IMG/VR virus record: IMGVR_UViG_2609459840_000009
Reading direction: 5' to 3' (one strand)
Length of the DNA: 38,416 nucleotides
Origin: a virus
Lineage: Duplodnaviria > Heunggongvirae > Uroviricota > Caudoviricetes
Of the stretch, positions 1-37,482 are shown piece after piece; the first letter of the stretch is position 1, and the number at the start of each line of letters is the position of its first letter. The translations under genes and the position numbers were made by a program. Below the pieces are notes generated by a model that did not search any database, was not told the DNA's origin, and was given only the letters and a program-made list of their open reading frames with translations.

Positions 1-1053
1 TTACGGGGTAATGCCAACCGCTGCCGCCACTTTGTCGCCACTTGGCAGCGTTGCCAGAGGATTGAAACGGAGCGCCGTTTCCAGATGATCCGGTGCCAGA
101 TGTGCGTAACGCATAGTCATTTTTATATCGTGGTGTCCGAGAATTTTTTGTAAGGCCAGAATGTTTCCACCCGACATCATGAAGTGCGCTGCAAACGTAT
201 GGCGCAGAACGTGTGTGAGTTGACCGCGAGGGAGCACGATAGACGTTTTTTCCATCACGGATAAAAATTGAAAATAGCAGTCTGTGAAGAAATTGAACCC
301 ATCGAGCGCCATGATCTCTTCGTAAAGCTCTTTACTGATAGGGATGCTTCTGTTTTTCTTCCCCTTCGTTCTGACAAAGGTAATTCGGTATTTGGTCACC
401 TGTGAGCGGGTAAGATTTACGGCTTCACGCCAGCGTGCGCCTGTGCTTAAGCATATCTTAACTACCAGTGCCAGAATTGGGTCCTGACGTTTGCAATCAG
501 CCAGCAATTCAACAATCTGCTCATGGGTAAGCCATGCCATCTCTTTTTCTGCGATGGTGAATTTTCGCATGTTCTCCAGTGGGTTCGGATACGACCATTC
601 GCCCAGACGGGATAGTTCGCTAAAAACACTACTTAGATAGCTTTGCTCCAGGTTAATGGTGACCGGGCTTGCTCCTTTCTTCCATTTCTCGCTGAAGTAG
701 ATCTCGCCTGTCAGGCGTTTATCTCGATAGTGGGCAAACATTTTAGAGGTTAGATCAGTTGCAAGGGGATTGCCCAGAGCGTCAACCATCAGCAGCAATT
801 TGTCATAGACATGCTGCCCAGCAGTCAGTGATTTACCATGTAGTTTGAACCATAGCTCAACCACGTCTTTCAGTGTTCGACGATCCACTGATTCACCTAG
901 CCAGGGCTTTGCTTCGGTTTCTTCCATCGTGTGACGCTCAAAAGCCAGAGCTTCGCCTTTGGTGGCGAATTGTTTACGCACACGACGTCCACTACGTCCG
1001 GCGGGATAACATTCGCACAGCCATTTTCCTGTGGTGAGTTTTCGTACTGCCAT
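1..1053 (-). CDS. int: phage integrase, tyrosine recombinase (P2/186 Int family)
   Basis: 350 aa ORF with ATG start at 1051-1053 (minus strand) and stop at 1-3. C-terminal HxxR...Y catalytic signature (LRHTFAAHF ... MRYAHL). Position at the prophage end matches P2 organisation. Confidence 0.93.
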   Translation of the reverse strand: MAVRKLTTGKWLCECYPAGRSGRRVRKQFATKGEALAFERHTMEETEAKPWLGESVDRRTLKDVVELWFKLHGKSLTAGQHVYDKLLLMVDALGNPLATDLTSKMFAHYRDKRLTGEIYFSEKWKKGASPVTINLEQSYLSSVFSELSRLGEWSYPNPLENMRKFTIAEKEMAWLTHEQIVELLADCKRQDPILALVVKICLSTGARWREAVNLTRSQVTKYRITFVRTKGKKNRSIPISKELYEEIMALDGFNFFTDCYFQFLSVMEKTSIVLPRGQLTHVLRHTFAAHFMMSGGNILALQKILGHHDIKMTMRYAHLAPDHLETALRFNPLATLPSGDKVAAAVGITP

Positions 1054-1136: not shown

Positions 1137-2813
1137 CTAAGCAACATGTAGTTCATCGTTGGCGGAAGTGGCTGCTTTGCGTTCCTGCTCAATAGCTAGT
1201 GACTCTCTATATTCTTTCGCCTCTGCAAACATTGTCCAGTGGGCATTGATGTTCATATCTTCAATAACCGATTTAATTTCTTTAATATTTACGTTAAAAA
1301 ACTCTTTTCGTGAGTTAATTTTATTGACCTGCTTTTCGTTGAAGACTTTATGCAGATGATTTTCTAATGACGGTGCATCATCACTATAAATCATCGCATG
1401 AACATCGAACGAAAAAGGAACACTAGCATCCCCAAGTTCACGAACACGATCAAGTGGTTCAAGGCGGCGTGTCATTCCAATTTTATATACATCTTCGCCA
1501 AATGAGCCAATATTGCTAATTATATAAACATGGCCTGATCTAGTTTGTTGAGCCATAGAAATAGCTCGTTGGTTTTTAGCTTCAGCTTCTTCATATTTTA
1601 ACTGTAGTTCAGCTATTTTTTGCTCTAAAGCTAAGCGTTGTTCTTCATTTGCAAGCATAAGCTCTTTCGTCGCTTTATTTATAGCTTGCTGAATAGCTTT
1701 CTCTTCTTTTTCGGCTTCTTTTATCGCTTTTTCATACTCTCTACGAGCTCTTTCCTCTTCACGAAGCTGTTCTTTAATCCTTCTTTGCTCCTCTTTTTCT
1801 TCGAGCATAATTTCATTAACTGCAACTCCCCATTTTAGCTCGTTGAGTCGTGCCTGAAGATAGATGTCACTTATTTTTGCGGATTTAAAAGCAGAGCCAT
1901 TATAATTTACAAGTTGAAATGCATCTTTTATTTCTTGGGAAAGTTTTCCAAAATTGTTGTGTTTGACTTTTGATAAAATACTGTCAACTCTTCCATTGAA
2001 GGCATCCAAAACAAAGTTGATAGCAGTATTACGCCTGTTTTGCTCAACATAATCACACGAAGCTGCTTTATTAGTTTTTATTAATGATTTTGTTAACTCC
2101 CTGGCTTTTTGTAATTCCTTGCCTGCATCTGTAAACTCATAATTTTCTGCCAATTCATCAAGTACACTACGGTTAGGGATGATCCATTCATCGCCATAAC
2201 CTTCAATTTTATTTTTCATTGATTTAGCAACTGCTTCATATTTTTCTGCAAACTCTTTAGCTTCATATGCTGAACCAGCAATCTCTTTTGCTCTTTCTTC
2301 TGCATCGGAAATAATTTTTACTGCGTTGTCATTAGCATTTGAGATCAGCTCATTTGCTTTACTGTTGGCATTATCAAGACGTTCTTTGGCTTTCAGGCGT
2401 GCATCGCGAGCGTCTTTGGTGATTGCTATAGCTTCGCTATTAGCGTTGCTTATTGTTATCTGAGCTTGATAATTTGCTTCGTTTACTGTCTTAGCAGCCT
2501 TTATTTGGGCTTCTTCTATTTTTTGCCTGGCTATTGAGTCTGCATTTTTTATCTTATTCTCTGCTTCCATCACTGCGCTGTGCAATTCTACGTATTGCCA
2601 TAATGGTGCAGCTCGTCCTTCAAGCTCTGATAGATCTCGTACAGTCTGTGCTAATTCTTCTTGATTTTCTTTCAGTTGGCTGGAAAGAGCTATGTTGTTA
2701 GCCGTCAGGTTATCTATGGCGGTTTTGTGTTCTTTACTTTTCTTAAATAATATTATAGCTAGAACAGGGGCGAGAAATGCTAATAATAATATAACGATGG
2801 AAAATGAATTCAT
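1137..2813 (-). CDS. cargo protein: N-terminal transmembrane anchor, long coiled-coil, C-terminal T5orf172/GIY-YIG-like domain (predicted nuclease or DNA-binding)
   Basis: 558 aa ORF with ATG at 2811-2813 and an AAGGA RBS. Hydrophobic N-terminus (FSIVILLLAFLAPVLAIILF), then Ala/Lys/Glu-rich heptad-like sequence. C-terminal motif GHVYIISN...YKIGMTRR...R...E resembles the T5orf172/GIY-YIG superfamily from memory. Visibly AT-rich compared with neighbouring phage genes. Confidence 0.7.
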   Translation of the reverse strand: MNSFSIVILLLAFLAPVLAIILFKKSKEHKTAIDNLTANNIALSSQLKENQEELAQTVRDLSELEGRAAPLWQYVELHSAVMEAENKIKNADSIARQKIEEAQIKAAKTVNEANYQAQITISNANSEAIAITKDARDARLKAKERLDNANSKANELISNANDNAVKIISDAEERAKEIAGSAYEAKEFAEKYEAVAKSMKNKIEGYGDEWIIPNRSVLDELAENYEFTDAGKELQKARELTKSLIKTNKAASCDYVEQNRRNTAINFVLDAFNGRVDSILSKVKHNNFGKLSQEIKDAFQLVNYNGSAFKSAKISDIYLQARLNELKWGVAVNEIMLEEKEEQRRIKEQLREEERARREYEKAIKEAEKEEKAIQQAINKATKELMLANEEQRLALEQKIAELQLKYEEAEAKNQRAISMAQQTRSGHVYIISNIGSFGEDVYKIGMTRRLEPLDRVRELGDASVPFSFDVHAMIYSDDAPSLENHLHKVFNEKQVNKINSRKEFFNVNIKEIKSVIEDMNINAHWTMFAEAKEYRESLAIEQERKAATSANDELHVA

Positions 2814-9559: not shown

Positions 9560-10300
9560 TCAGTTTTCTTTGAATTTTTCACTTAATCGTTTCGTCAATA
9601 CTTCGACAGATTCTTTGCGACCGGAGAACAAGTCATTGACGACGTACTCCATAATCTCAAAAGCATCCTCAATGTCTTTGACTTTTACTTCATCGTAGGT
9701 ATGGCTTCCGGCATTTCCTAAAAATTTAATTGCCATAAGAGGTCTTGAAAACGATCCGTATAATTCAGGTAGCATCCCTAAACGGTGGTGTAGAGTTATG
9801 CGTTTGCCATTATCATTACGTTCAGCTACATCCATAGCAGTTAGCATTCTTTCAACTGAAATTCGAATTAGGTTTGCTGCTGCGCCAGGCTGTATTAGGA
9901 AAATGGAAAATGAGGCTTCAAGCGGTTCGGTAATTTCTTTTGGGCATTTTTCAGGTATTTCGAAAGGATGCAGTGATGGGTAAAAGGTGAAAGGTCTATA
10001 CCATTGATAGTACTCAATATCATTTCTTTCTTCATCCCAACCTTGTTCCCATCCACTCTTACCAGTACAGGCCACAACTTCACCACATTGCATTCTTGAA
10101 CAGCGGGCCATGCAACTGAAAATAGATGAATCCATTTCTAGTTCAAACCAATCTTCACTGCGGAATTTTCGGGTATCATGTGTGTCATACGAGACGAAAC
10201 TTTCTTTAATGATCTGTAGGGTTTTCTGATTGCAGTTAGGGCAGGGCCACTCAACCTGCATATCGTGGAAAAACGCACCAGAGAGCTTGTGCACAGTCAT
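9560..10300 (-). CDS. cargo protein: N-terminal Cys-rich (zinc-ribbon-like) region, C-terminal DUF4145-like (possibly HEPN-like) region
   Basis: 246 aa ORF with ATG 10298-10300 and GAGGAA RBS. Cys cluster (CPNC ... CMARCSRMQCGEVVAC) and C-terminal motif IKFLGNAGSH reminiscent of DUF4145, from memory. AT-rich, in the P2 tin/old hotspot position. Confidence 0.6.
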   Translation of the reverse strand: MTVHKLSGAFFHDMQVEWPCPNCNQKTLQIIKESFVSYDTHDTRKFRSEDWFELEMDSSIFSCMARCSRMQCGEVVACTGKSGWEQGWDEERNDIEYYQWYRPFTFYPSLHPFEIPEKCPKEITEPLEASFSIFLIQPGAAANLIRISVERMLTAMDVAERNDNGKRITLHHRLGMLPELYGSFSRPLMAIKFLGNAGSHTYDEVKVKDIEDAFEIMEYVVNDLFSGRKESVEVLTKRLSEKFKEN

Positions 10301-10707
10301 TCTTTGTGTTCCTCATTTTTATGATTGGTAGGGATTGTATCTTCATACACGATTACAGTTGCATTAAAGATAAGCCATAGCAAGCTACTGGAAAAGAGAC
10401 GAAACAGTTGGGCATATCAGATGTTTTTTCTTAAGGTAAGTTGTTGTGCATGCCTATACTGCATGAGATTGCATGATCGTTTGAGGATCGTTATTGCTAA
10501 GGCCCACCAGAACTGGCGGGCTTTTGCGTAGATCATGCAGGTGCATGAAAACCACTACATAAAGCGGGCAGGCGTGGCGGGGATACGAGCGCGCGCTGTG
10601 CTGTGTGGTATAGGCCTTAATTTAGTATGATTCAATAGTGTCGGGAGCTTTGCGCTGATCAGTCCTAAGTTATATGATAAGAAAAATGCATAAAAAAGGT
10701 TCGGTTC

Positions 10708-11682
10708 ATGGGGTTAGGATTAAAAGACGCTATTGTGCATACCGCTGCGTTTCATCAAAAGGAAACTAATGAATTGCAATTGCCAAACAATCATTGGCAT
10801 CCTGGTTTTATCACTGTCTTAGCAGCTTACGTGAATCATCACAAAATTACCGAAGATAACTGTGTTTTGTCATGCCCGGGCTATATGCGAGCTATCAATT
10901 TACATGGTGCTTTATGGGGAGAGGATCAGTATCAACAGGAACGTGTAAATGTTGGAAGAAATTACAGTTTGGTTACAGCATTAACCAATGTTGAAGCTGT
11001 TGACGTTGCCACTGGTAGTATTAACAGTTGTGTAAGGCAGTTAACATTCCCTGATCGTGATCCGAGAGATTGTCCCAAGGGACTTACAGATCTAACCCAT
11101 GTTATAGGTGAGCTTCACGATAACGTTTGGTCGCATGGAAAATCAACGGGTTTTTCTTTTGCACAACGTTCGGCTGTACCCCACACTCAAAAAAAAGAGC
11201 ACTATTTAGAATTTTCTTTGGCGGACTGTGGGTTAGGATTTCTCCGAGAATTGCGGCGAGCTGGTATACCCGGAATTGAGACTCACCAGGATGCGATCGC
11301 ATGGTGTATTCAAGAGGGACATTCATCTAAGCATGCTGATTTGCAGGATGATTGGGCACAGCAGCTTCCCCAGGACTTTATTGGGGGTAGTGTGTTTGGC
11401 CACGGGGTTTCGGTCAAAGAAAAAGATAATAATCATCAAGGGCTTGGGTTGTATCACTTGATGAAATTGATAAAAACATATAATGGGGAATTGCAACTGG
11501 CTTCAGGAAATGTATGCTTAGAAGCAATAGGTGATGAAGTGAGCTATACTGAATTACGTACTGAATGGCCGGGTGTAGCAATTTCTTGCCGTTTTAAGAT
11601 TCATGAACTGGCAGTCGATAAAGATAGCGAAGAAAATGACCCTCAGCTTATGGAAATAATGCGGGCGTTAGGAGGAGAGTAA
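10708..11682 (+). CDS. cargo protein: GHKL/Bergerat-fold ATPase (histidine-kinase-like ATPase, RsbW/anti-sigma-kinase-like) with an unassigned N-terminal region
   Basis: 324 aa ORF with ATG 10708. N-box-like ELHDNVWSHG, G1-box-like DCGLGF and G2-box-like GLGLYHL are visible in the translation. AT-rich. Confidence 0.75.
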   Translation: MGLGLKDAIVHTAAFHQKETNELQLPNNHWHPGFITVLAAYVNHHKITEDNCVLSCPGYMRAINLHGALWGEDQYQQERVNVGRNYSLVTALTNVEAVDVATGSINSCVRQLTFPDRDPRDCPKGLTDLTHVIGELHDNVWSHGKSTGFSFAQRSAVPHTQKKEHYLEFSLADCGLGFLRELRRAGIPGIETHQDAIAWCIQEGHSSKHADLQDDWAQQLPQDFIGGSVFGHGVSVKEKDNNHQGLGLYHLMKLIKTYNGELQLASGNVCLEAIGDEVSYTELRTEWPGVAISCRFKIHELAVDKDSEENDPQLMEIMRALGGE

Positions 11683-12020
11683 TGAACAAAATCGCATACA
11701 AGTTACCCGAGGGTGACCTGGCTTCGCGCAATCAGGCTATCCCCCAACGACACAAGATTGAAGGGTTCATTAAAGAAGGGTATACCGTAGATTTAGATCT
11801 GAGCGGTGTTTATTCAATTTCAGAATCATACTCTGATGAAATCTTTGGTGTTTTGGTAGTGAAATTCGGTGTAACCAAAGTTTTGAGTCAAGTTAAGGTT
11901 CGCAATGCACCCCCTTCAATTTTAAAAAGTATTGCAAAAGTGATCCAACGCCGTAGTAATGAAGTAGCATCAAAAAAGGTTCATTCCGTTGGATTTGATG
12001 GTTTATACGCCGTTTGTTAA
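11682..12020 (+). CDS. cargo protein: small STAS-like (DUF4325-like) protein, putative partner of the GHKL ATPase
   Basis: 112 aa from ATG 11682 overlapping the upstream stop (TAATG), with strong GGAGGAGA RBS. Motif VDLDLSGVYSISESYSDEIFGVL resembles DUF4325/STAS-like proteins, from memory. Confidence 0.65.
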   Translation: MNKIAYKLPEGDLASRNQAIPQRHKIEGFIKEGYTVDLDLSGVYSISESYSDEIFGVLVVKFGVTKVLSQVKVRNAPPSILKSIAKVIQRRSNEVASKKVHSVGFDGLYAVC

Positions 12021-20866: not shown

Positions 20867-22156
20867 TCAATTGGTAAAAATTCTACTCTGCTCACCATAG
20901 CTGTCCTTTGCTTCGTTAATCAGATCCTCCCATGGCCATTTTATGGTTACATATTTTCGATAAATTAAAATGGTTCTGTCGATAGCAGTGACCTCATCAG
21001 TTGCATCATTGTAGGAAAGAACTAACCCTCTATCGTCACTATCAACCTGTAACTCTTCAATTTTTTGAAGTACAGTTCGCAGATTCCCTTTTAATATTCG
21101 ACTTTGTCTTCTTGACGCAATTTTAAAAATGGTATCTAACTCTAATCCTTGAATGAGTTCTTTATCGGATGAGTCCATTATTACAGCCATGGCATGAGCA
21201 TAAATGCCAGTGGTTTCTGTTCTTTTACGTATTCCTGATGATATATCTTTAGCAAATTTTTGATATCGAGAATTTAATTGTTCAGCATATTTCATGGCTG
21301 CATCAACGAATTTTTCTTGATCATCTAACATCGTTAATGTTGTACATTCCTCATCAATTCCTGTCTCGTCAAGAATGTTTAAGGCTAGTTGTTGTAAAAT
21401 CCCAACATTACCATAGCAATCATCAAGGATGCATCTCTTTATATGATCTGAGAACTTAACTTTTAAAGTTTCTGATCCACTTATTATTACTTGTTCAAGA
21501 TCGGCTCTAGACCATGATATGGGAATTTCTTCTATGCGAGAACCAAGGTCAGAATTTAAATAAATTAGTAGGTTTGTTTTTGTCCAAACACCAATGATTA
21601 CGAAAAAACAACCATAATCCCAAAGCGCCTTTAAGTCATAAGCAAATATTTGTCGTTCACGAGTGTTTAAGTAGTGAAAATCTTCAATAACTACTTTTCT
21701 TCCTGCTTCGTTAATTATTTCTGCAATAAATCTCAAATCATTAATATCTTGACCAACATTTCCTTTTTTTATTACCTCCTCTTCAGAAGTCTCAAGTCCA
21801 AATTTAACCTTTAGTTTTGCTATAAGACCAATGCCTCCTGCAGCAGAGCCCTCCATTACGCCTTTAATTGTATCTTTTTCGGTTCTCTCTAGCACAAGGC
21901 TTATACCTAATTGAGATAGAATATCTATATATATATCTAAAACGGTTGTCTTTAATCTGCATTGTACAACAATAGCATTAGGTATGTTCTTTTGTCTTAA
22001 CCATGACTTACCACATTTGGATTCCCCTCTTAAGGCGAGATGTATTGGTCGGCGTAATTTTCTACTGATTTCCTTATCAAGATTTCCTCTGTCTACATAT
22101 GAATCAGCAAGAATCGTTGGTGAAATACCAAAAACTTCGTGTGTTTGTTTCTTCAT
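20867..22156 (-). CDS. cargo protein: orphan P-loop NTPase (AAA+/ORC-like ATPase candidate), antisense to the late operon
   Basis: 429 aa from ATG 22154-22156 with GAGG RBS (the ORF track starts at an upstream TTG). Walker A GESKCGKS and Walker B-like VVIEDF. Visibly AT-rich; inserted between S and V where P2 has only an intergenic promoter. Confidence 0.7.
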   Translation of the reverse strand: MKKQTHEVFGISPTILADSYVDRGNLDKEISRKLRRPIHLALRGESKCGKSWLRQKNIPNAIVVQCRLKTTVLDIYIDILSQLGISLVLERTEKDTIKGVMEGSAAGGIGLIAKLKVKFGLETSEEEVIKKGNVGQDINDLRFIAEIINEAGRKVVIEDFHYLNTRERQIFAYDLKALWDYGCFFVIIGVWTKTNLLIYLNSDLGSRIEEIPISWSRADLEQVIISGSETLKVKFSDHIKRCILDDCYGNVGILQQLALNILDETGIDEECTTLTMLDDQEKFVDAAMKYAEQLNSRYQKFAKDISSGIRKRTETTGIYAHAMAVIMDSSDKELIQGLELDTIFKIASRRQSRILKGNLRTVLQKIEELQVDSDDRGLVLSYNDATDEVTAIDRTILIYRKYVTIKWPWEDLINEAKDSYGEQSRIFTN

Positions 22157-22176
22157 GATGGCCTCACTATCCGTTT

Positions 22177-22194
22177 TGTACTGTTTATCACACA
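22177..22194. promoter_or_regulatory. Ogr-type late-promoter activator site (TGT-N12-ACA dyad) upstream of V
   Basis: TGTACTGTTTATCACACA has TGT-N12-ACA, about 55 bp upstream of the V start codon and just upstream of the divergent cargo ATPase start. Confidence 0.4.
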
Positions 22195-22240
22195 AACAAT
22201 ACTAAAGGAAAGCCGCTTTCTTTTAATTAACTATATCCAT

Positions 22241-26184: not shown

Positions 26185-26601
26185 ATGAATAAATTTTATA
26201 AAGGCTCTTTCTATCCGGAAGCACTAAAAGATGTATATATCAGCGCCGGTTCATGGCCTGAAAATGGCGCTGATGTTGATGATGAAACAATGGCAATTTA
26301 CACAGGCGTAGCGCCAGAAGGCAAAACGCTGGGGGCTGATAAAAATGGTAATCCTGCGTGGATTGATATCCCGCCACTCTCCGCTGAACAACAGATTATT
26401 CTGGCTGAACAGAAAAGAACGGTATTGCGTTCTATGGCTGATAAGGAAATAGTCTGGAGACAGGATGCTTTTGATGCGGAAATCGCGACGGCAGAAGAAA
26501 CCGCCGCGTTATCTGAATGGAAAAAATACCGGGTCTTGCTGATGCGCGTTGATACATCAAATCCCGTCTGGCCTACGCCTCCGGGGGAGCAGGCCAATTG
26601 A
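26185..26601 (+). CDS. G: tail fibre assembly protein (P2 gpG family), current orientation
   Basis: 138 aa from ATG 26185, just after the H stop. Confidence 0.8.
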   Translation: MNKFYKGSFYPEALKDVYISAGSWPENGADVDDETMAIYTGVAPEGKTLGADKNGNPAWIDIPPLSAEQQIILAEQKRTVLRSMADKEIVWRQDAFDAEIATAEETAALSEWKKYRVLLMRVDTSNPVWPTPPGEQAN

Positions 26602-27175
26602 TATCCGGCGCGGTGCTGGTATCAGTTGCCGTCACCGCGTCAATGTAATCCAGCACAGCGTTAAGTCGGGTGTTTTCTGTCTGCGTCAGCTTCCGCCCGG
26701 TCTGCAATTTCAGTTGAATCAGACTAATGGAAGCCATTGCAGTATCAATCAGTGACTGACGCTGTGCTTCTGCCGCGCCTACTGCGGCACTATGCTGTGC
26801 CTCAGTATCTGTCACCCATTTCTCACCATCCCATTTATCGTATGGCGTTAACGGTGCGAGAGTGGTTGTATTATCAGGGTAATCACCCGGTGCTGTGATT
26901 TCTTTTGATTCTCCTGTTTCGGTGCTAAAGACAATTTCACCGCGATGGTCCGGCACATATTCCCATGAATTTAAATCCACAGAGCGGCAAATTGAATAAC
27001 CATCCTTATGTGTACCAGGAGCCTCTAAACAGGAACATGCCGGAATACCAACACCCACAGCAAGATATTCAGATGATTCGGAAATATATTCCCGCGTATC
27101 ACCATCATAGTTATAAACGATGACGTTTCCCGCCTGTACGGCAATAAGGTCATTATTTAATATCGCGTTATTCAT
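26573..27175 (-). CDS. alternative tail fibre assembly protein (G'), inverted orientation
   Basis: 200 aa with ATG 27173-27175; convergent with G and overlapping its 3' end; downstream of the alternative fibre C-terminal segment on the minus strand. Confidence 0.75.
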   Translation of the reverse strand: MNNAILNNDLIAVQAGNVIVYNYDGDTREYISESSEYLAVGVGIPACSCLEAPGTHKDGYSICRSVDLNSWEYVPDHRGEIVFSTETGESKEITAPGDYPDNTTTLAPLTPYDKWDGEKWVTDTEAQHSAAVGAAEAQRQSLIDTAMASISLIQLKLQTGRKLTQTENTRLNAVLDYIDAVTATDTSTAPDINWPAPPEA

Positions 27176-27678
27176 TATGCAGCTCTCACAATATAATTGA
27201 AGGCGATGTTACGTGGGCGGGTTTCATTTCCCCCTGAAAACTCCGTTCTGTATTGACTGTTAAACCTCCCGTTAATCGCACCTTCCTGCACGGCGTTATC
27301 TGTCGACAACAGACTGTCGCCCTGTCTGTCATTTGGTTCCAGTACTGTATTATTCCACGCGTCCCATGATCGGATATAGTGACAATGACTCCCTGTCAAC
27401 CATTCCTGTGCGCTTAAGATGGCTCGACCTGTATCCACACCGCGCCCGTCATCCCAGCCACGAATAAATTCACCGCGTAAATCAGGTAATTTTCCGCTCG
27501 GGTAAGCCTTTGCCAGTTCCGGGTATTCTTCAGCAGAAAAAGCCGCACCGTTGCATTTCAGCCAGCCTGTCGGAGGTGTGACAGAAGGCCAGGGAACAGG
27601 GACACCAACGGGTAATGCTGAGCCTTCTCCCAAACCAACGTTTAAGAAAATGCAGAGGTAACAGCTAACTGGCATCAT
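27175..27678 (-). CDS. alternative tail-fibre C-terminal segment (H variable part'), predicted to be expressed only after inversion fuses it to the constant part of H
   Basis: Open frame on the minus strand with no convincing independent start. Its N-terminal GLGE codons coincide with the crossover site and mirror the GLGE at the H crossover site. Confidence 0.65.
   Translation of the reverse strand: MMPVSCYLCIFLNVGLGEGSALPVGVPVPWPSVTPPTGWLKCNGAAFSAEEYPELAKAYPSGKLPDLRGEFIRGWDDGRGVDTGRAILSAQEWLTGSHCHYIRSWDAWNNTVLEPNDRQGDSLLSTDNAVQEGAINGRFNSQYRTEFSGGNETRPRNIAFNYIVRAA
27625..27650. other. 26-bp serine-invertase crossover site, right site (inverted relative to 25701-25726)
   Basis: TTCTCCCAAACC-AA-CGTTTAAGAAAA; its reverse complement ends in TTGGTTTGGGAGAA, identical to the right half of the left site. 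Confidence 0.7.
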
Positions 27679-27705
27679 CTCCGGTTTTTATTCAGGGGGA
27701 TGATC

Positions 27706-28272
27706 ATGCTTATTGGCTATGTACGTGTGTCAACAAATGACCAGAACACCGATTTGCAACGTAATGCACTGAACTGCGCGGGATGTGAGCGAATTTTTGA
27801 GGACAAAATCAGTGGCACTAAGTCCGACAGACCGGGACTGAAAAAACTACTCAGGACACTATCGGCAGGAGACACGCTGGTTGTCTGGAAGCTGGACAGG
27901 TTGGGACGCAGTATGCGGCATCTTGTTACGCTGATAGAAGAGTTGCGCCAGCGTGGCGTGAATTTCCGAAGCCTGACTGACAGTATTGATACCAGTACCC
28001 CAATGGGCCGTTTCTTTTTTCATGTCATGGGTGCCCTGGCTGAAATGGAACGCGAACTGATAGTTGAACGTACCAGGGCGGGGATTGCTGCAGCTCGCGA
28101 CAAAGGCAGAGTAGGTGGACGTCGTCCTAAGTTGACCACCGAACAGTGGGCACAGATTGGACGTTTACTCGAGGCCGGAGAATCAAGACAGCGTATTGCA
28201 CTGATTTTTGATGTGGGCGTTTCTACCATTTATAGAAAATTTCCGGCAAATAAGAGCAGTGAATCCCCCTGA
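27706..28272 (+). CDS. serine recombinase, DNA invertase (Gin/Hin/Cin/Pin family)
   Basis: 188 aa from ATG 27706 (alternative ATG at 27700). N-terminal catalytic motif GYVRVSTNDQ with the active-site serine; C-terminal HTH (GVSTIYRKF). Confidence 0.9.
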   Translation: MLIGYVRVSTNDQNTDLQRNALNCAGCERIFEDKISGTKSDRPGLKKLLRTLSAGDTLVVWKLDRLGRSMRHLVTLIEELRQRGVNFRSLTDSIDTSTPMGRFFFHVMGALAEMERELIVERTRAGIAAARDKGRVGGRRPKLTTEQWAQIGRLLEAGESRQRIALIFDVGVSTIYRKFPANKSSESP

Positions 28273-34155: not shown

Positions 34156-35252
34156 ATTTCAGCTCTGAACTGCTTAACAAAGGCAACAAAACTCCGGCAT
34201 TCAGCATCAGTATTGAAGGCAAGGATATCACCACAGTGCTGGACAACCGCCTGATGAGTCTGACGCTGACGGATAACCGGGGCTTTGAAGCAGACCAGCT
34301 TGATCTGGAACTGGACGACGCCGATGGAAAAATCGTGCTGCCGCGTCGTGGTGCGGTTATTACGCTGGCGCTGGGCTGGAAGGGGCAGCCGCTTTTCCCG
34401 AAAGGGGCATTCACGGTGGACGAGATTGAACACACTGGCGCACCGGATCGCCTGACTATCCGGGCGCGAAGTGCTGATTTTCGTGAAACGCTGAATACCC
34501 GCCGTGAAAAGTCGTGGCACAAGACCACCGTTGGGGAAGTGGTGAAGGAAATAGCTGCGCGGCACAAACTGAAGATGGCATTGGGTAAAGACCTGTCAGA
34601 TAAACCCGTGGAACATATAGACCAGACCAATGAGAGTGACGGCAGTTTTCTGATGCGGTTGGCGCGCCAGTACGGTGCTATTGCGTCGGTGAAAAATGGC
34701 AATCTGTTATTCATCCGACAGGGACAGGGTAAAAGCGCCAGCGGTAAACCACTACCGGTGATCACTATCACACGTAAGGACGGCGACAGTCACCGCTTTA
34801 CCCTGGCAGATCGCGGAGCTTACACGGGGGTAATTGCCAGCTGGTTGCATACCCGCGAACCCGCGAAGAAAGAAAGCACTACGGTGAAGCGTAAGCGCAG
34901 GACTAAGAAGCAGAAGAAAGAGCCGGAAGCGAAGCAGGGCGATTACCTGGTGGGGACGGATGAAAACGTGCTGGTACTTAATCGCACTTATGCCAACCGG
35001 AGCAACGCTGAACGGGCAGCGAAAATGCAGTGGGAACGCCTGCAACGTGGCGTTGCGTCATTCTCGCTACAACTGGCGGAAGGGCGGGCAGATCTCTACA
35101 CGGAAATGCCAGTGAAAGTCAGTGGCTTTAAACAGCCGATAGATGATGCGGAATGGACCATTACGACTCTGACGCATACCGTAAGCCCGGATAATGGTTT
35201 TACGACCAGTCTGGAGCTTGAAGTGAGGATTGATGATTTCGAAATGGAATGA
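34152..35252 (+). CDS. D: tail protein / late control D (P2 gpD family)
   Basis: 366 aa with GTG start overlapping the U stop; last structural gene before ogr. Confidence 0.9.
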   Translation: MNFSSELLNKGNKTPAFSISIEGKDITTVLDNRLMSLTLTDNRGFEADQLDLELDDADGKIVLPRRGAVITLALGWKGQPLFPKGAFTVDEIEHTGAPDRLTIRARSADFRETLNTRREKSWHKTTVGEVVKEIAARHKLKMALGKDLSDKPVEHIDQTNESDGSFLMRLARQYGAIASVKNGNLLFIRQGQGKSASGKPLPVITITRKDGDSHRFTLADRGAYTGVIASWLHTREPAKKESTTVKRKRRTKKQKKEPEAKQGDYLVGTDENVLVLNRTYANRSNAERAAKMQWERLQRGVASFSLQLAEGRADLYTEMPVKVSGFKQPIDDAEWTITTLTHTVSPDNGFTTSLELEVRIDDFEME

Positions 35253-35342
35253 TTCTTCGCAATGGAGAACTTTTAAGTTTGCAAAATGGAATAATGCGGT
35301 ATCATTATTGTGAATTTAGCAAAAATGGGGAGAACTCGAAAA

Positions 35343-35561
35343 ATGATGATTTGCCCACTGTGTGGAAGTGCCGCCCATACTCGCAGCAGTTTTCAGGTAT
35401 CTTCATTGACCAAAGAGCGTTACAACCAGTGCCAGAACATTAACTGCAGCCATACTTTTGTTACCCATGAAACTTTTGTTCGTTCGATTGCAACGCCAAA
35501 AGAGTCAAATCCGGTTCAGCCGCATCCAATGAAATCAGGACAGGTGGCGCTCTCTCTTTGA
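35343..35561 (+). CDS. ogr: Ogr/Delta-family zinc-finger late-gene transcription activator
   Basis: 72 aa from ATG 35343 with GGGGAGAA RBS (the ORF track starts at an upstream GTG). CPLCG...CQNINCSHTF zinc-finger resembles P2 Ogr; last phage gene at the right prophage end. Confidence 0.88.
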   Translation: MMICPLCGSAAHTRSSFQVSSLTKERYNQCQNINCSHTFVTHETFVRSIATPKESNPVQPHPMKSGQVALSL

Positions 35562-35641
35562 CGCTGCCGCCATTTTGTCGCCATCGTTAAAAAACAGTGC
35601 TTCTAACATCATGATTTTAAACAGCTTAAATTTCAGGCAAC

Positions 35642-35720
35642 AAAAAACCCATCAACCTTGAACCGAAATGGCGGGGGTGATGGGCTCCACAAAATGGGGA
35701 CATCAAAGAAAAGCAGTGGC
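35642..35720 (-). ncRNA. rybB: RybB small regulatory RNA (sigma-E-dependent, Hfq-binding)
   Basis: The minus strand reads GCCACTGCTTTTCTTTGATGTCCCCATTTTGTGGAGCCCATCACCCCCGCCATTTCGGTTCAAGGTTGATGGGTTTTTT, matching my recollection of E. coli RybB apart from about one base. It ends in a terminator hairpin plus U-run and sits next to ybjL as in E. coli K-12. A GAACTT ... TCTTA sigma-E-like promoter lies just upstream at about 35721-35765. Confidence 0.8.
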
Positions 35721-35796
35721 ACTAATTAAGACTGATGCCCTGCGGAAAAGTTCTGCGGTTGTGCAAAAAAATTTCATTTTCAGGGCAACTTCAGTT

Positions 35797-37482
35797 TTAT
35801 CCTAATCCTGGCCATACCATGACGATGATTGTCCCTGCCAGCGTCAGCAGGACGTTGGCGATTGCATAGGTGCCCGCATAGCCCAGCGCCGGGATGTTAC
35901 TGCGAGCTGTATCACTGATGATCTCCATTGCCGGCGCGCAGGTACGTGCGCCCATCATTGCGCCGAACAACAGCGCGCGGTTCATTCGCAATACATAAGC
36001 ACCGAACAAGAAACAGATAACCACGGGCACCAGACTGACAATCAATCCGGCAATCAACATCTGACCGCCAATCGCGCCCAGGCCGTTATTAATACCGCTA
36101 CCGGCGCTCAGACCAACGCCTGCCATAAACACCATCAAGCCGAACTCTTTCACCATGCTTAATGCACCCTGCGGAATGTAACCGAAGGTCGGGTGGTTAG
36201 CACGCATAAAGCCCAGCATAATTCCGGCGAATAACAACCCGGCAGCGTTCCCCATGCCGAAACTGAATGTGCTGAACTGGAAGGTGATCATCCCGATCAT
36301 CAGCCCAATAACAAAGAAGGCGCAGAATGCCAGCAGGTCAGTGACCTGGCTGTGAATCGAGATAAAGCCGATGCGATCGGCGATGGTTTTTACGCGGCGG
36401 GCATCGCCGCTGACTTGTAAAACGTCACCTTTGTTAAGCACGACGTTGTCATCTATCGGCATCTCAATCTGGCTACGAATGACGCGGTTAAGGAAGCAAC
36501 CGTGATCGGTCAACTTCAGTTGTGCGAGACGTTTACCTACAGCGTTATGGTTTTTAACGACCACTTCTTCAGTGACGATACGCATGTCGAGAAGGTCACG
36601 ATCGAAAACTTCTTTACCGTTACGGAAGCTGGGATCGAGTCGGGCATGGGCGTCGGGATAGCCTACCAACGCTATTTCATCGCCCATTTGTAGCACGGCA
36701 TCACCGTCTGGATTTGCCAGAATCCCGTTACGTCGAATACGTTCAATGTAGCAGCCGGTTTGTCGATAAATACCCAGTTCACGCAGATTTTTGCCGTCGG
36801 TCCAGGCCACCAGTTCCGGGCCGACGCGATAGGCGCGGATCACCGGTAAATAAACCTTACGGTTGGCATCAGTGTCCAGGCCACGTTCGCGGGCGATTTG
36901 CTGGGCGCTGGTCTGTAAGTCCTGATGCTGCAATTTCGGCAAGTAACGCGCACCAACAATCAAACTCACCAGACCGATTAAATAGGTTAAGGCATACCCG
37001 AGGCTCAGATTATCCAGTGCCAGTGAGAGCTGCCTGCTTTCCATGCCGGAATGACGCAGTGTATCGCCAGCACCGACCAGAACCGGTGTCGACGTCATAG
37101 AGCCTGCTAACATACCGGCCGTCAGGCCAATATCCCAGCCAAACAGCTTACCTAACCCTAAGGCGATCACCAGCGCACTGCCAACCATCACCAGTGCTAA
37201 CATTAGGTAATTTTTCCCATCGCGAAAAAAAATGGAAAAAAAGTTCGGTCCGGCTTCGACCCCGACGCAGAAAATAAACAGCATAAAGCCAAGATTAAGC
37301 GCATCGGTGTTAATGCTGAAATGTTGTTGGCCTAATAACAGCGATACGACTAAAACGCCAATGGAATTACCCAGTTGGATCGAACCAAGTCGTAACTTTC
37401 CGAGACATAGCCCAAGCGCGAGGACCACAAATAATAACAGAATGTAATTCCCATTTAACAATTCGGCGACGTTTATATTCAC
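35797..37482 (-). CDS. ybjL: putative transport protein YbjL (AAE-family transporter with TrkA-C domains)
   Basis: 561 aa, multi-pass membrane protein with central soluble domains; GTG start; sequence and context (ybjM and grxA downstream) match the E. coli ybjL locus. Confidence 0.92.

Follow-up and report, generated by a model that had tools for sequence, protein, structure and literature searches.

The right-hand end of the window (i.e., the whole 38,416-nucleotide stretch of DNA that was analysed) raises the question of whether its prophage recombined into the 3' end of a small RNA gene, and at which bases. The original prediction had ogr, the last phage gene, ending at 35561, followed by a RybB-like sRNA on the opposite strand and by ybjL, ybjM and grxA, with an integrase gene at the far left edge; Pfam, Rfam and the open reading frames bore out these coordinates and gene calls. 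The final phage gene, ogr (35310-35561, plus strand), encodes a late-gene activator (Pfam Ogr_Delta, E=6.7e-22) and is annotated as such by RefSeq in lysogens. An Rfam scan found a single RNA family in the window, a full-length RybB (RF00110, 35639-35717, minus strand), which scored 100.3 bits versus a gathering score of 40 (E=1.3e-19) and covered model positions 1-79 of 79, with 77 nt between the ogr stop and the start of the match. Based on this match and the predicted fold, we assigned the rybB gene to 35639-35720 (minus strand), presuming from the mapped RybB 5' end that three further bases (GCC) belong to it. On the same strand, folding placed the terminator hairpin at about 35646-35686 and the U tract at 35642-35647, and the promoter region (35721-35765) is the same as in K-12, where RybB is expressed in a sigma-E-dependent manner and binds Hfq. 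Rightward of the prophage, the nearest protein-coding gene of the host is ybjL (35797-37482, minus strand; an open reading frame that RefSeq also annotates), and the right-hand host order is rybB, ybjL, ybjM, grxA. In lysogens, rcdA is located past attL, which puts the rybB site between rcdA (ybjK) and ybjL.

At the left prophage end, the window opens with a tyrosine integrase gene (1-1053, minus strand; Pfam Int_N and Phage_integrase), whose homologue in JML285 carries the RefSeq name 'phage integrase'. Its stop codon lies at the window edge, leaving attL and the remaining P' arm just beyond, in line with the expectation that attL would fall outside. The integrase is 55% identical to that of PSP3, 49% to HP2, 39% to P2 and 38% to Wphi, and is a member of the P2/HP1 group. 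The prophage also has the gene content and arrangement of P2 (int, repressor, ... D, ogr, attP), with Pfam matches to the CI repressor, gpD and Ogr; the homologous prophage of ATCC 8739 bears a complete P2-type annotation, and related phage records are classed as Peduoviridae.

We defined the junction by a three-way comparison of attR (from the window), attL (from ATCC 8739 and JML285) and the empty site of K-12, the core being derived from the attL of these other lysogens. In the window, attR reads ...cagcttaaatttcaggc AACAAAAAACCCAT caaccttgaacc..., while the empty K-12 attB, located between rcdA/ybjK and ybjL, reads ...gtagtagataagttttagat AACAAAAAACCCAT caaccttgaacc... and the attL of JML285 reads ...gtagtagataaattttagat AACAAAAAACCCAT ttatgtaaacgggtt... 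The exact common core is thus the 14 bp AACAAAAAACCCAT (35639-35652, plus strand), common to attR, attL, attB and attP. Phage sequence begins directly to the right of this 14-mer in attL and directly to its left in attR; since attL keeps host bases on the left where attR has phage bases, both strand exchanges must have taken place within the 14-mer or at its edges. The direct repeat expected at the left prophage junction was found in the attL of JML285 and at both ends of the ATCC 8739 prophage, where the two copies lie 34,893 bp apart and the exact repeat is 14 bp and no more. The window itself holds one copy (0.03 expected by chance). The int gene that adjoins attL in JML285 is identical to that of the window, and the left end of its prophage is 100% identical, though the two prophages differ in length and JML285 is without the base change that the window shows at 35677. 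The attL of the window's prophage is predicted to read AACAAAAAACCCAT followed by TTATGTAAACGGG, adjoining int.

Alignment to the uninterrupted K-12 site, another comparison that the original prediction had pointed to, found one copy of the core there and, from 35639 to the end of the window (2,778 nt), a single mismatch to K-12 DH5alpha, at 35677. Empty sites with one core copy were likewise seen in 2018-01-1CC, MS21324, STEC17-190, an O111:H8 strain and strain 268.2, and the uninterrupted rcdA-rybB-ybjL site is present in thousands of further genomes. In the RNA sense the core reads AUGGG-UUUUUU-GUU, i.e., the last five bases of the terminator's 3' arm, the U tract and three more bases, and it coincides exactly with the final 14 positions of the Rfam RybB model. 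The proposal that attR lies within 35562-35660 and overlaps the rybB terminator was therefore accurate, and we conclude with high confidence that 35562-35652 is the attR of a P2-like (Peduoviridae) prophage that entered the 3' end of rybB by tyrosine-integrase recombination. The exact cleavage positions would lie inside the 14-mer; inspection by eye for a core-type inverted repeat that would place the overlap region revealed no convincing one around the core.

To the left of the core, attR consists of the phage P arm (35562-35638, plus strand), which is absent from empty sites and which in KP12 is contiguous with the core and the P' arm (99%). We reconstructed attP by joining window positions 35300-35652 to the right arm of the JML285 attL (727 nt), and found this sequence uninterrupted between the ogr and int genes of Klebsiella phage KP12 (727/727 nt, 99.0%). 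The phage P' arm (ttatgtaaacggg...), which contains a tandem 18-nt repeat, TAATGAAAACAATAAGTT, is unrelated to rybB; in attP and attL the 14 bases of the core close another, smaller hairpin, AACCCGUUU-ACAU-AAAUGGGUU, followed by UUUUGUU. This hairpin, predicted to have a 9-bp stem and U6 (-9 kcal/mol), is located some 60 nt past the int stop codon and most likely terminates the int transcript. The rybB terminator, for its part, folds into a stem of 9-12 bp with UUUUUU directly after it (-25.2 kcal/mol in K-12, -21.0 kcal/mol in the window). A simple consensus terminator scanner reported no terminator in 35200-36000; the rybB hairpin is internally branched, and its loop of more than 8 exceeds the scanner's limit.

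Taken with the junctions, these folds indicate how the phage integrates while sparing the sRNA. Recombination takes place inside the exact 14-bp segment that attP and attB have in common, and integration exchanges the 5' halves of the two predicted hairpins over their common 3' half. As the exchange falls inside the common segment, it rebuilds both hairpin-plus-U-tract structures unaltered: RybB retains its full sequence at attR and the int transcript its hairpin at attL, so that rybB and int each possess a complete hairpin and U tract, whether the phage is integrated or free. The sole change for RybB is in the DNA past the U tract, from host ATCTAAAAC to phage GCCTGAAAT, and its expression would be expected to be unaffected by integration.

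Flanking the core on both sides, we noticed a 22-nt motif made of two G(C/T)CGCCA units 11 nt apart. It occurs twice in the window, with one mismatch between the copies (0 expected). The P-arm copy, CGCTGCCGCCATTTTGTCGCCA, directly follows the ogr stop (35562-35583, plus strand) and marks the outer limit of the att site, and the P'-arm copy, CGCTGCCGCCAcTTTGTCGCCA, lies at 19-40 (plus strand), where it overlaps the final 13 codons of int (...SGDKVAAAVGITP*); both are candidate Int arm-type sites. The P' copy is invariant in 12/12 diverse attP or attL elements, in some of which a cargo ORF overlaps it instead of int, and a related motif is found at a similar distance from the core in 8-9/10 phage-type left arms that are otherwise unalignable. 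The motif was absent from the host-flank attL sequences compared. One viral contig, IMGVR_UViG_2834054130_000005 (L032, 9937-11700), has a 240-aa cargo ORF between int and attP that carries the original C-terminal tail of int, SGDKVAAAVGIAP*, and its stop, while int is shortened and has acquired a new tail; that the cargo ORF reads into the SGDKVAAAVGIAP* tail indicates that the motif is kept as DNA and not for the integrase protein. From this pattern we infer that the two 22-nt motifs are putative Int arm-type sites bounding an att site of ~200 bp. Going further, the att site may be read as a compact ~200-bp module that combines a terminator-mimic crossover, which would leave both transcription units whole in either state, with bounding G(C/T)CGCCA-N4-GTCGCCA arm-type sites, neither feature being known to have been described before, a reading to which we give even chances; in such a module, one arm-type site may lie within the last 13 codons of int and be kept despite cargo between int and attP. 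Our literature searches turned up no experimental work on an integrase specific for rybB.

Two further observations concern the outer edge of the P arm. In a diverged rybB prophage of E. coli 98207 (L061, 663-1184), a gene for a 173-aa hypothetical protein sits between ogr and the P-arm motif, with a diverged P arm after it; its position looks like one more cargo slot, on the outer border of the att site. In addition, the 3' coding end of rcdA, TGACGCTG----CATTTTGTCACC (L002, about 2916-2936), resembles the start of the P arm, TGACGCTGCCGCCATTTTGTCGCC (window 35559-35582). An equal score was reached in just 2/2,000 shuffles, but the likeness was noticed post hoc and may reflect chance or an old exchange between a host flank and a phage arm.

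Could the strand exchange instead have fallen in intergenic DNA just past rybB, with the sRNA wholly host-derived? The GUU of the 14-mer (35639-35641) may exceed the true 3' end of RybB, as the U run is where termination usually occurs, the core's imperfect extension (35627-35638) lies downstream of rybB, and an exchange in the AACA end would formally sit just past the 3' end of the mature RNA. However, attL leaves the attB sequence only after ...CCCAT, meaning that the identity reaches five bases into the terminator stem, and any overlap of 6-8 bp within 35639-35652 takes in part of the U tract. Moreover, attL and attR of the same genome differ in the five bases left of the 14-mer, so the exchange did not take place left of 35639. 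We accordingly regard an intergenic exchange as improbable, and retain recombination into the 3' end of rybB. Whether the junction is still functional is a related matter: some rybB prophages have decayed (several late genes of the ATCC 8739 copy are frameshifted), and the attR described here could be the fossil of a defective prophage, no longer a working recombination site. This seems unlikely, given that the window's int, repressor gene, ogr, core and both 22-nt motifs are intact, and that near-identical att-int modules are found in sequenced phage records.

The extent of the phage-supplied sequence also bears on the mismatch at 35677. The original prediction correctly noted that one base of the terminator stem differs from K-12, and suggested that the phage might have supplied it. 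The window has G at 35677 where K-12 has T (C44 versus A44 in the RNA, the gene being on the minus strand), which converts an A-U pair of the upper stem into a one-base bulge and accounts for the weaker predicted fold given above, leaving the nine pairs adjoining the U tract unaltered. If the base were phage-borne, the phage-supplied part of rybB would have to extend through the terminator; its position in the terminator near the junction, together with a remaining host flank identical to K-12, would fit such an origin. Yet 35677 is 25 nt from the core on the host side, the P' arm that continues from the core in attP is not rybB sequence, and the attR of both ATCC 8739 and Klebsiella 4LV2017 carries the K-12 base. 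We also searched 5,426 complete E. coli genomes with a 41-nt probe centred on 35677, in which a central mismatch prevents the seeding of a match, and the variant was found in only one genome, STEC17-190, whose rybB site is empty. These observations rule out a phage origin, to which we assign next to no probability, and here the original suggestion fails: the base is a rare variant of the host or an artefact of sequencing.

Beyond the exact core, identity between phage and host extends imperfectly to the left, over TAAATTTCAGGC (35627-35638, plus strand), which equals the empty-site allele found in many E. coli and matches at only 8-9/12 positions in the two 'tagat'-type alleles. E. coli empty sites have three alleles left of the core: the phage-identical ataaatttcaggc (26 nt of identity including the core; e.g., O157:H7, 042 and ATCC 25922) and two of the 'tagat' type, ataaattttagat and ataagttttagat, the latter being that of K-12. 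The phage-identical caggc allele was empty in about 1,400 cases, as estimated from evenly spaced rows, and present as attL in at most about 220, by subtraction, whereas the two tagat alleles together were empty in 2,333 cases and present as attL, i.e., in lysogens, in 884. Lysogeny is therefore no commoner with longer host-phage identity, a comparison confounded by phylogroup. The idea that the diverged attB alleles reflect host escape from integration is unsupported, as the diverged alleles are, if anything, occupied more often, with the same confounding. A second element type at rybB was likewise considered, on account of matches starting at query base 340 and not 328, and rejected: one such locus (L005) is a plain empty K-12-type site, and the two starts stem from differing BLAST extension through the imperfect 12 bases.

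Across genera, the 14-mer is kept in Klebsiella, Raoultella, Citrobacter, Leclercia, Silvania, Scandinavium and other Escherichia species, the lone exception among those examined being AATAAAAAACCCAT, seen in a single viral contig. Immediately left of the 14-mer, five bases are variable (caggc, cagaa, cagac, caagc, caccc, tagat). Within E. coli, the phage-identical and K-12 attB alleles (L002, L007, L022) are separated by four transitions in the 13 nt left of the core, a local excess of change where the right flank of attB differs by only about 1.3%; an allele intermediate between the two exists. In E. coli O145:H28 RM13514 (L006, 2216-3015), an insert of about 0.8 kb with a serine acetyltransferase gene separates rcdA from rybB, and the core is AACAAAAAACCCAC, which turns one pair of the rybB stem into G-U (-24.6 kcal/mol).

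Of the 5,426 complete E. coli genomes, about 1,105 have the ogr-rybB-ybjL junction; E. coli B and ATCC 8739 are among them and match a junction query spanning 35300-36000 at 99.4-99.9%. The mechanism above accounts for the survival of RybB, a core sigma-E-dependent sRNA, in roughly one-fifth of sequenced E. coli genomes, those with this prophage: the phage supplies an exact copy of the 14 bases that it displaces.

We next set this junction beside known integration systems. In P2, integration at locI, which is not an RNA gene, involves a 27-bp core with imperfect host identity, Int arm sites arranged as direct repeats, and the accessory proteins IHF and Cox. The window's prophage is like P2 in its ogr-attP-int-repressor order, in having direct-repeat motifs on both arms, and in its zone of similarity of ~26 bp, in which mismatches are tolerated outside a shorter exact part; it is unlike P2 in its Int (39% identical, as above) and in the sequences of its core and arm motifs, which are unrelated. 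HP1 integrates in a tRNA gene, and the use of tRNA and tmRNA 3' ends as integration targets was reportedly described by Williams in 2002. As in those cases, the 3' terminus of a structured RNA gene is copied in attP here, so that the gene is restored, and the integrase is related (HP2 Int, 49%); unlike them, the duplication covers only the last 14 nt, which also form the 3' half of a terminator-like hairpin belonging to the phage. The P2-like phage Wphi, the ogrK remnant that K-12 has at the cyaR (ryeE) 3' end and the Salmonella ryeB/sdsR insertion hot spot likewise use an sRNA gene as the attachment site, but the sRNA and the core are different, and the Int of Wphi is only 38% identical.

The Klebsiella rybB prophages Kpn38RybB, 4LV2017 (KY271398) and KP12 (OM835953), which come from another host genus, have the same att-int module as the window. 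The P' arm and core are identical, KP12 holds an intact attP, and the integrase in the record of Klebsiella phage Kp4877-1 is 99.4% identical to that of the window. In 4LV2017, attL and attR are annotated over the window's core, at 19-20 bp, with Klebsiella rybB to the right; the attL/attR identity is longer there because the Klebsiella host flank has caggc adjoining the core.

That rybB serves as an integration site for P2-like phages is real in this window, was correctly read from it and has already been described. Archer et al. (2011, PMC3032704) place three P2-like prophages, Rybb*W, Rybb*B and Rybb*Cr of E. coli W, B and Crooks/ATCC 8739, respectively, at the 'rybB ncRNA', name cyaR in their Table 2 and report that Rybb*B carries retron Ec86. 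Kpn38RybB was placed 'precisely within the gene for ... RybB' (Hudson et al. 2014, PMC4048246), and the sRNA genes cyaR/ryeE and ryeB are cited as known neighbours of integrated P2-like and other phages by Bobay et al. (2013, PMC3603311). An E. coli defence 'hotspot 29', occupied in 109 genomes, is listed by Hochhauser et al. (2023, PMC10121019). Rybb*W/B/Cr and hotspot 29 are like the window in their rybB target, their P2-like phage type and the ogr-rybB-ybjL junction; the cargo differs, Rybb*B having retron Ec86 where the window has a PD-Lambda-1/SNIPE-type gene and a PDC-S59 gene. When we searched the literature for a rybB att core at nucleotide resolution, the text available gave site-level statements only. 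What is added here, i.e., the exact 14-bp core, its coincidence with two hairpins, the three attB alleles and the candidate arm sites, amounts to refinements, not discoveries, and the attR result leaves current understanding unaltered. Still, a core defined at nucleotide level is of use in calling prophage borders, in curing lysogens and, possibly, in employing the integrase as a tool for site-specific integration.

Phages also often bring defence genes into the genome at rybB, and the window carries cargo genes of its own. Between int and the CI repressor gene, at 1137-2813 (minus strand), lies a gene for a 558-aa protein with DUF4041 and T5orf172/MUG113 domains, which matches PADLOC PD-Lambda-1 (E=9e-120) and which RefSeq names 'SNIPE associated domain-containing protein'; these matches identify it as predicted anti-phage cargo at a P2-type hotspot. 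At 20867-22195 (minus strand), opposite in strand to the flanking tail and baseplate genes, is a gene for a 442-aa protein that has no Pfam match and a full-length match to the PADLOC candidate defence family PDC-S59 (E=1.9e-197); in ATCC 8739, another gene pair occupies the equivalent position. A further cargo block, at 9560-12020, encodes a DUF4145 protein with a weak PD-T7-4 match, a 324-aa protein without a family match and a 112-aa DUF4325 (STAS-like) protein. Finally, a serine DNA invertase gene (27700-28272, plus strand; Resolvase and HTH_7) adjoins opposed tail-fibre and assembly ORFs (26573-27678, minus strand), and the whole of 26573-28272 looks like an invertible host-range segment.
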